Origin: a virus
Virus record (IMG/VR): IMGVR_UViG_3300045988_018631
Span: 1 to 20,979 of that record
Reading direction: 5' to 3' (one strand)
Length of the DNA: 20,979 bases
In this document: positions 5,396 through 6,863 of the stretch, piece after piece
Layout: each line of letters opens with the position of its first letter
How positions within the stretch are numbered: the stretch's first letter is position 1
Made by a program: the position numbers and the translations under genes
Notes under the pieces: generated by a model
Databases searched by the model: none
The model's input: only the letters and a program-made list of their open reading frames with translations
Told to the model about the DNA's origin: nothing

Positions 5396-6264
5396 TACTT
5401 AGCACTAGCAGATAAGTAAATACCTGCTACCTTATTTGCGTATACATCAACGATTCCATATTTACGATATTTCAATACATCTGAATCTGATTCAATGTTA
5501 TTGCTTGCAGGAATCACATTTGAAACAGTGTGTTTATCCCATTTCATAACGGCAGGCTTATGAACAATCAAGAAGTTGATTACGTGTCCATCTTCTGCCT
5601 TTTCGTATCCGCCCTCTAACTCTGTATCTTTTCCACTCAACAATTTGATTTTTGTATAGAAACGACTAGCAGGTACAGGAACAACCTTTGCAAATCCTTG
5701 TAAAGCTTCACGAGATTTGTAAGTGTCCAACGCCTTAACGCTATTTAATAATGTTGGTGTTGAATACAAGATACGTTGTTCGCTAGGGACTTCATCCTCA
5801 TCCATTTTAGTGATAGCCGTTAATAATGCGCTCAAGAACTCTTCTGCACCTGTATAATCTTCTGCAACTGTTGTGATTCCTGTTGTGCCTGCAATCTTAG
5901 CGAATGTGTAAGCGTCTGCTTCCGGTGCTACCTTTGTACGCATTAATTCTGCTCCTGCCATGCCGAATGCAATATTCATTGATTCTGCGTTATCTTGTGT
6001 ATCAACTGAGATTTTAGTTCCTCTATCGTAGTCGAATGTTGCAGTTTTCCATTCCAATTTAACTGAGTTGCCTGTATAACCACTATTTCTGTCGTAGTTT
6101 CCTAAACCTTTGACTGAAATTTGTGGATAGATGATTTCTTTTGCATTTGCTCCTGCTCTTACCATTGTAGCGCTTGCATTTAAATCACCTGTTACTGAAG
6201 CTAACTTATATACCTCATCTAGATTTGAGACATACGTTTTAGCTAATGCAATTTCATTTGGTAT
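5395..6264 (-). CDS. Major capsid protein with an apparent ATA start
   Basis: The ORF-track version (5395..6165) is open 33 more codons upstream: (I)PNEIALAKTYVSNLDEVYKLASVTGDLNASAT. I recall this AK.Y..LDEVYK motif as the conserved N-terminus of A118-type capsid proteins. AAGGAGGA lies at 6280..6273, then 9 nt after GGAGG, then ATA at 6264..6262. The in-frame context is TAA-TTA-ATA. Confidence 0.85.
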   Translation of the reverse strand: MPNEIALAKTYVSNLDEVYKLASVTGDLNASATMVRAGANAKEIIYPQISVKGLGNYDRNSGYTGNSVKLEWKTATFDYDRGTKISVDTQDNAESMNIAFGMAGAELMRTKVAPEADAYTFAKIAGTTGITTVAEDYTGAEEFLSALLTAITKMDEDEVPSEQRILYSTPTLLNSVKALDTYKSREALQGFAKVVPVPASRFYTKIKLLSGKDTELEGGYEKAEDGHVINFLIVHKPAVMKWDKHTVSNVIPASNNIESDSDVLKYRKYGIVDVYANKVAGIYLSASAK

Positions 6265-6278
6265 TAATTAAATCCTCC

Positions 6279-6863
6279 TTATTTCTTTTCTGTAGTTAAG
6301 CCCATTGCCTGTCGTAGCAATAAATCTTCGGCGTTTGGGTTATCTCCTTGCCCACTGCTTCCAACGATACTTCCTGTTGCAGTAGGCTTTTTCTGTTCTT
6401 CTTCAAACAAGATTGGCTTATTCTCTTTCAAAGTTTTGAAAGCTTTGTCAATATCATTTGTTTGGTCTTTTGATTTAAGCAAATCATCATAATTGAATTG
6501 TGATTTTGCTAAATCGAAATCTTTACATCCGTATTCTTTGGCTTTTGCACTTAATACAGAATCAAGATTCATTTTGCTAATCTGAGTTTCGTAGCTTGTC
6601 TTTTGAGTATCAATATCATTCGTCAATGTATTGATTTTATTTCTAAGTTCTTCTACATCAACCCCATCATAGTTTTTTTTGAAATTATCAAACTTTGTTT
6701 GAATTTCCTTTGCGTTGTTCTCTGCTAAAGATAGCTTTTCTTTCTGCTTGTCGAACTCTGCAATCGTCTTATAGTTGTCATTTACTAGCTTTGTAATTGA
6801 GTCCTCTTGCTCTTTGGTTAATTCAATGTTTGATTCTTTTAAAATTTCAATAATGTTTTTCAT
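6279..6863 (-). CDS. Scaffolding protein
   Basis: 194-aa protein that is highly charged and coiled-coil-like. It lies directly upstream of the capsid gene. TAGGAGGG precedes the ATG. Confidence 0.6.
   Translation of the reverse strand: MKNIIEILKESNIELTKEQEDSITKLVNDNYKTIAEFDKQKEKLSLAENNAKEIQTKFDNFKKNYDGVDVEELRNKINTLTNDIDTQKTSYETQISKMNLDSVLSAKAKEYGCKDFDLAKSQFNYDDLLKSKDQTNDIDKAFKTLKENKPILFEEEQKKPTATGSIVGSSGQGDNPNAEDLLLRQAMGLTTEKK

Follow-up and report, generated by a model that had tools for sequence, protein, structure and literature searches.

The DNA analysed here is a stretch of 20,979 nucleotides from IMG/VR virus record IMGVR_UViG_3300045988_018631 (hereafter the window), which belongs to a temperate siphophage of Holdemanella. 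In it the major capsid gene and seven further genes open with ATA behind a Shine-Dalgarno (SD) sequence, and the one transfer RNA (tRNA) that ARAGORN and Rfam found in it bears the anticodon UAU, the exact complement of AUA. An earlier note on this DNA had proposed that the capsid gene starts at ATA 6264..6262 on the minus strand, and this is supported by the Met positions of homologous proteins, by the profile of PHROG 422 and by conservation throughout the clade, all of which agree. By its sequence features the tRNA looks like a bacterial initiator, and we lean, with some reserve, towards the view that the phage encodes an AUA-reading initiator tRNA serving these ATA starts.

The start of the major capsid gene

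On the minus strand the scaffolding protein gene runs out in GAA AAG AAA TAA (6281..6279), with AAGGAGG at 6280..6274, followed by ATT, TAA, TTA and then ATA 6264..6262, after which the codons read CCA AAT GAA ATT GCA TTA GCT AAA ACG TAT GTC. Direct reading puts GGAGG (6278..6274) at a distance of 9 nt from this ATA, and the TAA at 6270..6268 is in frame and closes the capsid frame on its 5' side; no further stop occurs from 6267 until 5397..5395, and TTA and ATA are the only codons between the TAA and the conserved sequence. The first ATG, GTG or TTG of the frame is ATG 6165, 33 codons past the ATA, and a start there would lose IPNEIALAKTYVSNLDEVYKLASVTGDLNASAT, a segment conserved in homologues. 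What the earlier note says of the SD distance, the in-frame TAA and ATG 6165 holds. It had also pointed to an out-of-frame ATG that lies 16 nt from the SD sequence and opens only a short open reading frame (ORF; MKLH*), and this stands except for the position, which is 6257..6255 and not 6247..6245; a second out-of-frame ATG, at 6233..6231, opens MSQI*. The scaffold gene (PHROG 194, 6863..6279) lies immediately 5' of the capsid gene in the head-morphogenesis module, and PF06810 (Phage_scaffold) and PF06152 (Phage_min_cap2) are found upstream of the capsid gene in relatives.

Translated from the ATA, the capsid protein matched PHROG 422, the major head protein of the Listeria P35/P40 and Lactococcus 1358 type, with E = 1.6e-65 and with residues 3-288 aligned to positions 3-294 of the 297 in the profile, while a Pfam search of the same protein matched no family. 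By tblastn, annotated major head proteins of Eggerthella, Ruminococcus, Listeria P40 and pneumococcal phages align from query residue 1, and the N-termini of homologues at the ATA codon follow M-P/A-N-x-I-x-L-A-K. Homologues of ~68% identity from a large protein collection open MPNNI/MPNTI/MANTI..LAK.Y..LDEVYK (e.g., MPNNIVLAKTYVPLLDEVYK and MPNTIALAKNY), with their Met on the ATA codon. The upstream segment, whose lack in homologues the earlier note had named as part of the sign of a wrong start, is conserved in them. Its label of an "A118-type" capsid was not confirmed: A118 is absent among the matches listed, and the nearest Listeria phage capsids among them are those of P40/P35 (~30% identity), A006 (24.6%) and vB_LmoS_188 (23-25%). 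Megablast of the capsid region against GenBank phages gave no match, and that collection therefore holds no cultured close relative.

For the start-codon comparison we used 98 sequences (the window and L001-L097), of which 97 were informative, L090 being left out because its 5' end is missing. The codon of residue 1 is ATA in 40 of 40 loci with a capsid identity of at least 84.6%, and ATG in all 57 loci with a capsid identity of 47-56%. Within the ATA clade the spacer between SD and ATA differs (ATTTAATTA, ATTAATTA, ATATAATTA, AATTTAAA and AAATTGA) and capsid codons 2-6 vary; since the ATA stays invariant amid this variation, it cannot be put down to chance. The site reads GGAGGAT TAA TTA ATA GCA in L001, TAG GAG GAA TTT AAA ATA GCA in L002 and GGAGGAAAT TGA ATA GCA in L003, and is the same as in the window in L004; an in-frame TGA directly abuts the ATA in L003/L173 and L191. 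Two other codons were tried as starts and rejected, namely TTA 6267, in whose place L002 has AAA and L003 the stop TGA, and ATT 6252, which lies 21 nt from the SD sequence and is replaced by GTA or ATC in relatives.

ATA starts in seven further genes

We searched the minus-strand open frames of the window for ATA behind an SD sequence, and eight ATA starts were obtained, belonging to a small ORF, the terminase small subunit, the portal protein, a head protein, the capsid protein, a minor head protein, a tail protein and the tape measure protein (Table 1). An SD-like core lies 6-11 nt upstream at all eight, five of the eight abut or overlap an in-frame upstream stop, and six of the seven other than the capsid site lie at or beside one.

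For the portal, head and tail proteins, PHROG profiles reach upstream of the first canonical codon. This codon comes 31 codons past the ATA in the portal gene (PHROG 533 aligned from residue 22) and 33 codons past it in the head protein gene (PHROG 1220/9534/5339 aligned from residues 2-6), and both genes start with ATA in 39 of 39 relatives, the portal gene also in L176/L191. The first ATG of the tail protein gene comes 17 codons past the ATA, the profile aligns from residue 10, and the aligned start codon is ATA in 27 relatives and ATG in one (L113). The minor head protein gene (4514) keeps ATA in 32 of 32 relatives while its codon 3 varies among ATG, ATC, ATA and ATT; the L191 homologue has TAA and then ATA, and the PHROG 556 alignment is uninformative on the start. 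The TGA ATA of the tape measure gene stands directly behind AAAAGGAGGTGG, and the same TGA-ATA layout recurs in L173, where the first canonical codon is 20 codons past the ATA. The small coiled-coil ORF keeps ATA GAA in 30 of 30 relatives behind a variable spacer, and its in-frame ATG two codons past the ATA is a possible alternative start.

At the terminase small subunit the window has ATA GCT ATG CCA where L105 has ATG GCT ATG CCA, and L113 has ATA GCA AGA where L106/107/111 have ATG GCA AGA, so that at this start codon, and at that of the tail gene, ATA and ATG swap among near-identical phages. When six sites were aligned in 28-39 related genomes each, the 202 aligned cells comprised 201 ATA, 1 ATG and no ATT or ATC, and the control genes (scaffold, minor head protein at 8144 and regulator) always have ATG in relatives. 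Among triplets that open at least 60 codons 5-11 nt behind GGAGG or AGGAG, ATG was counted at 10 sites, ATA at 6, ATT at 1 and ATC at 1, other triplets in this tally being mostly neighbours of real starts in the same frames.

L173, an 85% relative, has ATA at six strictly scored genes, including those of the tape measure protein and a QueT-like membrane protein. The gene of the latter, which counts as cargo and lies between the terminase genes and the tRNA region, is apparently ATA-started (GGAGGAATATGA ATA TCA); the positions given for the QueT-like and tape measure starts in L173 are 780 and 13903.

Table 1. Features of the window, with positions counted from its first letter
Feature	Coordinates	Strand	Basis and remarks
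Small coiled-coil ORF, probable ATA start 17605..17603	17411..17605	-	AGGAGGTGGCTTTA ATA GAA ATG
Small sigma-70-region-4-like protein, ATG start	17088..17414	-	Directly upstream of the tRNA; weak PHROG 1740; Sigma70_r4 15.7 bits, below cut-off
Terminator-like hairpin with T run	17085..17101	-	Just upstream of the tRNA
tRNA, anticodon UAU, initiator-type features	16986..17061	-	A73, encoded CCA; ARAGORN; Rfam tRNA 49.1 bits
Terminator-like hairpin	16884..16902	-	3' of the tRNA and ahead of the SD of the following ORF
Terminase small subunit, ATA start 15008..15006	14637..15008	-	AAGGTGGTGATTAA ATA GCT ATG CCA
Portal protein, ATA start 13315..13313	11912..13315	-	AAGGAGGTAAGAA ATA
Head protein, ATA start 11915..11913	11106..11915	-	Overlaps portal stop as ATAA
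Scaffolding protein, ATG start	6279..6863	-	PHROG 194; ATG in all relatives; stop overlaps capsid SD
Shine-Dalgarno AAGGAGG	6274..6280	-	Overlaps scaffold stop TAA 6281..6279; kept in relatives, spacer variable
In-frame TAA upstream of capsid ATA	6268..6270	-	Read directly
Capsid start codon ATA	6262..6264	-	Aligned with initiator Met of homologues
Major capsid protein, 289 codons and stop	5395..6264	-	PHROG 422, tblastn
Minor head protein, ATA start 4514..4512	4152..4514	-	Overlaps upstream stop as ATAG
Tail protein (PHROG 3099), ATA start 3736..3734	3230..3736	-	AAAGGAGCTTAATTA ATA
Tape measure protein, runs off the window, ATA start 2268..2266	1..2268	-	In-frame TGA then ATA: AAAAGGAGGTGGCAAATTGA ATA

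A tRNA of initiator type with anticodon UAU

Across 5426 E. coli genomes, the best matches of the tRNA(UAU) are the metZ-metW-metV initiator genes between mltA and amiC, and its best Firmicute-type matches are canonical initiators of the Listeria and Staphylococcus types, at ~80% identity. Its global identity is 76.9% to E. coli tRNAfMet, against 59.8% to the elongator tRNA-Met (metT/U) and 57.7% to ileX. The marks found in it are A1xA72, G2:C71, C3:G70, A73, A11:U24, G29:C41, G30:C40 and an AGGUC variable loop, and its D stem, GAGC/GCUC, is that of E. coli tRNAfMet, where metT/U and ileX have GCUC/GAGC. The determinants for the formylase are the 1:72 mismatch together with pairs 2:71 and 3:70 (PMC5389676). 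From an elongator tRNA-Ile the molecule departs in its unpaired 1:72, in A11:U24 in place of Y11:R24, in a U at position 37 rather than the A37 that is the site of t6A, and in its limited similarity to tRNA-Ile (57.7% to ileX).

All variants exceed the Rfam tRNA threshold (43-56 bits). In a nine-row alignment of seven UAU variants of these phages, E. coli tRNAfMet and the CAU tRNA of L052, the cloverleaf is 94.7% paired, with compensatory changes at 10 pairs; 1:72 is unpaired in 9 of 9 rows, and G2:C71, C3:G70, A11:U24 and G30:C40 are invariant. Positions 1 and 72 are A1xA72 in all eight variants of the window's clade, C1xA72 in L176/L191 and U1:A72 in L245/L246, and never G:C or C:G. The anticodon is UAU in every copy, not the CAU of initiators. 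In the anticodon stem, pairs 29:41, 30:40 and 31:39 are G:C, G:C and U.G in the window and A:U, G:C and U.G in the commonest variant; of the three G:C pairs it is G30:C40 that is indispensable, and initiators whose first pair is A:U occur naturally (PMC5389676).

ARAGORN misses the commonest variant of the clade (anticodon stem CUAGU/GCUAG), to which Rfam gives 48.8 bits and which a pattern scan and regular expressions find; tRNA surveys relying on ARAGORN alone would therefore under-count it. A first impression from ARAGORN that most relatives are without the tRNA was discarded as such a false negative.

Co-occurrence of the tRNA and ATA starts

The tRNA stands at the same syntenic site in 91 loci, and every locus of the clade that covers the interval has it (30 by pattern, plus L113 with an AGGCC variable loop). 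The relatives with capsids of 85-86% identity, L245 (on the same contig as L173) and L246, carry it at the same place, with a canonical T arm and U1:A72. Farther away, L176/L191 share 53% capsid, 62% portal and 49% terminase large subunit identity with the window. Their gene order is regulator, terminator, tRNA(UAU) and terminase small subunit, their tRNA has the canonical C1xA72 and the same CUUAUUA loop as in the window, and ATA starts are found at their terminase small subunit (TGA ATA GCT AAA GGA AAG TAT), portal, capsid (TGA ATA GCA AAC AGT) and minor head protein genes. L178-L180, by contrast, have capsids closer to that of the window (68-70%) and ATG at every gene compared. The start-codon state, therefore, tracks the tRNA and not the capsid tree. 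Likewise, none of the 46 IMG/VR contigs with ATG-type capsids was among the 38 contigs that match the pattern of initiator D arm plus UAU.

Initiator-like UAU tRNAs are also present in unrelated viral and metagenomic contigs with a G+C content of 28-64%, several of them in two samples each, among which are L174/L175, L177, L183/L237, L185/L241, L187/L192, L212/L233, L216 and L221. Single metagenomic UAU matches with a host-like initiator sequence, which may be errors or pseudogenes, were not counted. One ORF of L233 opens with ATA and has no canonical start, and the genes of this contig are fragmented as in a stop-codon-recoded phage. The UAU-initiator phenomenon may be widespread and may explain some of the shortened gene calls in phages.

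Two side observations concern the same contigs. A tRNA with a four-base anticodon (tgaa, ARAGORN) adjoins the UAU initiator-like tRNA in L212 (1559-1633) and L233 (9388-9462, complement), and in L233 (95.8 kb) the fragmented ORFs are accompanied by a gene resembling a reverse transcriptase, a combination reminiscent of a phage that recodes stop codons and carries a diversity-generating retroelement.

How the AUA starts may be read

What is observed is where the start codons lie, how well they are conserved, which features the tRNA has and that it occurs together with ATA starts; the part of the tRNA in initiation, its formylation and the amino acid it carries we infer. Initiator tRNAs with an altered anticodon reportedly initiate at the complementary codon, and IF3 is said to check complementarity and not codon identity. 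The tRNA(UAU) (17061..16986), as a tRNA of the initiator type, would read the start AUA in the ribosomal P site by full complementarity. Its gene would form a small unit of its own between two terminator-like hairpins, ahead of the packaging and structural genes, and the phage would need this tRNA to make key virion proteins efficiently, a start-codon counterpart of stop-codon recoding by phage suppressor tRNAs. Because MetRS and IleRS both recognise the anticodon, Ile rather than Met is predicted on the tRNA(UAU), and the capsid protein may begin with (formyl-)Ile. To a fuller version of this proposal we give an even chance: the phages would possess a private initiation channel, in which the anticodon went from CAU to UAU and the virion starts from ATG to ATA, with (formyl-)Ile N-termini and with synthesis gated by the phage tRNA. 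What such a channel might be for is a matter of speculation; it could switch on late expression, shield the lysogen from leaky expression, or let the phage escape host defences that cleave the usual initiator tRNA.

Several observations weigh against the initiator role. The anticodon stem has only one or two of the full three G:C pairs; U stands at position 37; in the window's clade the T arm contains a bulged base and G55; and in the L245/L246 variants 1:72 is U:A, a weak Watson-Crick pair. Such a weak pair at 1:72 reportedly allows some elongator activity in E. coli. The lineages with both the tRNA and ATA starts share ancestry, so that their co-occurrence amounts to one origin, long maintained, with ATA/ATG turnover ongoing, and the ATG-type loci L178/L179 end inside the ParB-like gene, short of the syntenic tRNA site. 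Among the unrelated contigs, no convincing ATA starts were found within a few kb of the tRNA in L174, L177, L183, L185, L187, L194, L216 and L233. Finally, AUA-reading tRNA-Ile has a precedent in Firmicute prophages (PMC10688831), and ATA makes up 17% of the Ile codons of this phage.

The last point leads to the strongest rival account, which we regard as possible but rather doubtful: the CAU initiator of the host would read AUA as a near-cognate codon, aided by the SD sequence and by coupling to the upstream stop, and the phage tRNA(UAU) would be an elongator tRNA-Ile. ATA is indeed allowed as a bacterial start, although a weak one (table 11), the SD sequence is good at all eight sites and several of these are coupled to an in-frame upstream stop. 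Genes for an AUA-reading tRNA-Ile occur commonly in prophages of Firmicutes, codon compensation being the usual explanation, and phages use ATA more than their hosts (PMC10688831). The phage spends ATA on 67 of its 400 Ile codons, and the U1:A72 of L245/L246 and the incomplete G:C set of the anticodon stem would fit an elongator. Under this account, however, eight virion and packaging genes, including that of the most abundant protein, would rest on a very weak codon with nothing to compensate for it, whereas the ATG-type sister phages share the SD sequence and the coupling layout and yet use ATG. It would also leave the initiator-like character of the tRNA (77% against 58% identity, A11:U24, the 1:72 mismatch and the lack of A37 for t6A) without a reason, and it gives no account of why ATA alone, and never ATT, ATC or CTG, stands at all eight sites. 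Moreover, the genes that would gain most from an AUA-reading elongator contain almost no internal ATA: 5 of the 103 Ile codons in the ATA-start genes are ATA, against 62 of 297 in the rest, and the capsid, head protein and tail genes have none. Such avoidance is the opposite of what a codon-compensating elongator tRNA predicts.

That the capsid gene starts instead at ATG 6165, its 33 upstream codons being an untranslated leader, is very improbable, even though this is the start implied by public records. The capsid is called at 256-283 aa, and not at 289, in RefSeq, GenBank, IMG and Logan; its cluster includes WP_337526991.1 (256 aa, Holdemanella sp.), from which we take the host to be Holdemanella (Erysipelotrichaceae), as well as WP_288536604.1 (275 aa) and DAF49942.1 (256 aa, "Major capsid protein"). 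The four closest capsid clusters (85-98% identity) have likewise all been called as shortened proteins of 204-275 aa, while their DNA has ATA at the homologous codon. These records are short at the N-terminus because gene callers accept ATG, GTG and TTG but not ATA, and in the close relative L173/L245 the automatic calls also shorten the portal, head, tail and tape measure genes. Against ATG 6165, the protein sequence of the 33 codons is retained even in homologues of 25-30% identity, the PHROG profile covers it from position 3, the frame is open exactly from the ATA in all relatives, and no SD sequence precedes ATG 6165, whereas a strong one precedes the ATA.

An altered genetic code in which ATA means Met everywhere, as in vertebrate mitochondria, would account for the swap of ATA and ATG at start positions, but it too has very little to commend it. 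Among 1415 aligned cells, internal ATA codons changed to ATT or ATC in 11.7% and to ATG in 1.1%, a tenfold difference; internal ATA thus behaves as an ordinary Ile codon, and this substitution spectrum excludes the altered code. The ORFs of the window, moreover, read intact with table 11, with no in-frame stop reassigned. Lastly, that the ATA arose by an error in sequencing or assembly, or by mutation of an ATG in a decaying prophage, would take a single G-to-A change but is scarcely credible, as the same ATA is found in independent IMG/VR, ENA, Logan and NCBI assemblies, the cluster counts 1224 member sequences, seven more genes are alike and the capsid gene is under clear purifying selection.

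The tRNA locus and neighbouring genes

The tRNA lies between early and late genes, after the sigma-70-region-4-like gene and before the ParB-like, terminase and structural genes, and this order is kept in the 91 loci; it has been given as ~350 nt downstream of the sigma-like gene (coordinates in Table 1). The L176 counterpart of this gene passes Sigma70_r4_2 (27.3 bits), and its product is a possible late-gene regulator. An extended -10-like element, TGTAATAAT, at 17062..17075 on the minus strand, ends 6 nt before position 1 of the tRNA and is kept in relatives; the tRNA may be transcribed from its own promoter, with the start at or near the mature 5' end.

Downstream, two minus-strand frames, 16104..15394 and 15514..15029, overlap by ~120 nt, the second lacking a canonical start in its first 51 codons as well as any ATA behind an SD sequence; a frameshift, a fusion or an unrecognised start could underlie them. 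The terminase large subunit seemingly starts at TTG (14653 or 14644, minus strand) with no clear SD sequence, overlapping the end of the small-subunit gene, and relatives with a different type of large subunit use ATG for it. The block at 11109..8201 (minus strand), made up of small ORFs and a tail-fibre-like gene (PHROG 4492), all ATG-started, is unusually placed between the portal and head protein genes and the minor head, scaffold and capsid genes.

Comparison with known systems and significance

Rare ATA starts, phage tRNAs, phage CAU initiator tRNAs and the recoding of late genes by phage suppressor tRNAs are already known. A noncanonical start such as the AUU of infC is read by the ordinary initiator tRNA and is regulated by IF3. 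The starts described here likewise have a triplet other than AUG, GUG or UUG behind an SD sequence, and ATA is listed as a start in table 11; infC-type starts, however, are isolated, weakly translated and read by tRNAfMet(CAU), whereas here eight genes share one codon with a cognate tRNA alongside. Animal mitochondria initiate at AUA by means of a single tRNA-Met, encoded with CAU and carrying f5C34, and AUA is Met internally as well. In the phage, on the other hand, the UAU is genomic and internal AUA behaves as Ile.

The recoding of stop codons by suppressor tRNAs in the late genes of crAss-like and Lak phages, which has reportedly been described, offers another parallel, in which a phage tRNA changes the reading of one codon, the codons concerned cluster in structural or late genes, so that a switch of translational timing is possible, and standard gene callers fail. 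Of the eight ATA starts, seven belong to the module for packaging, head and tail, at the beginning of which the tRNA stands. Here, however, the start codon is affected, the tRNA is of the initiator type and no change of the elongation code is seen.

With the phage tRNA-Ile genes (CAU/k2C or UAU), and with the tRNA-Ile(UAU) of Mycoplasma mobile and Lactobacillus plantarum, the tRNA of the window has in common that it would read AUA, in a Firmicute phage of moderate ATA usage, but it differs from them in its initiator D stem, 1:72 mismatch, G2:C71/C3:G70 and U37 and is far closer to tRNAfMet. The CAU initiators of phages (L052-L057, L084 and gut phage MT835736.1) are, like it, of the initiator type, and they show a 1:72 mismatch, A11:U24 and three G:C pairs; L052-L057/L084 keep CAU and ATG capsid starts, whereas the tRNA of the window has UAU. 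In L052-L057 and L084 the CAU tRNA (2259-2332) lies ~0.7 kb upstream of ATG-start capsid genes of ~55% identity and shows G1xG72, A11:U24 and three G:C pairs in the anticodon stem. This phage group may have taken to carrying initiator tRNAs at an earlier time.

The nearest engineered analogue is the amber initiator tRNA (CUA), in which, as proposed here, a changed anticodon initiates at the complementary non-AUG codon. Capsid-gene starts of phiX174 changed to TAG depend on such an amber initiator tRNA (bioRxiv 10.1101/2024.07.29.605542). Those systems are man-made, use a stop codon as start and draw on a tRNA supplied by the host, whereas the AUA/UAU pair is natural and phage-encoded, and AUA is a sense codon that still stands for Ile internally. 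Our literature search turned up neither a natural initiator-type tRNA whose anticodon is other than CAU and that is coupled to matching starts nor phage capsid genes with ATA starts.

For annotation, the consequence is that standard gene callers and RefSeq shorten at least the capsid protein of very common Holdemanella phages. For synthetic biology and the biocontainment of phages, the pair would be a ready-made orthogonal start codon and tRNA. To our knowledge, the CAU anticodon of initiators and starts of the AUG family are among the most constant features of translation. If the proposal is true, a natural non-CAU initiator tRNA with a matching set of starts in one virus would be new in nature and would break with the CAU rule for initiator anticodons. 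A phage could then, as with stop codons, make the start codon private and in this way control or protect how its virion proteins are made.

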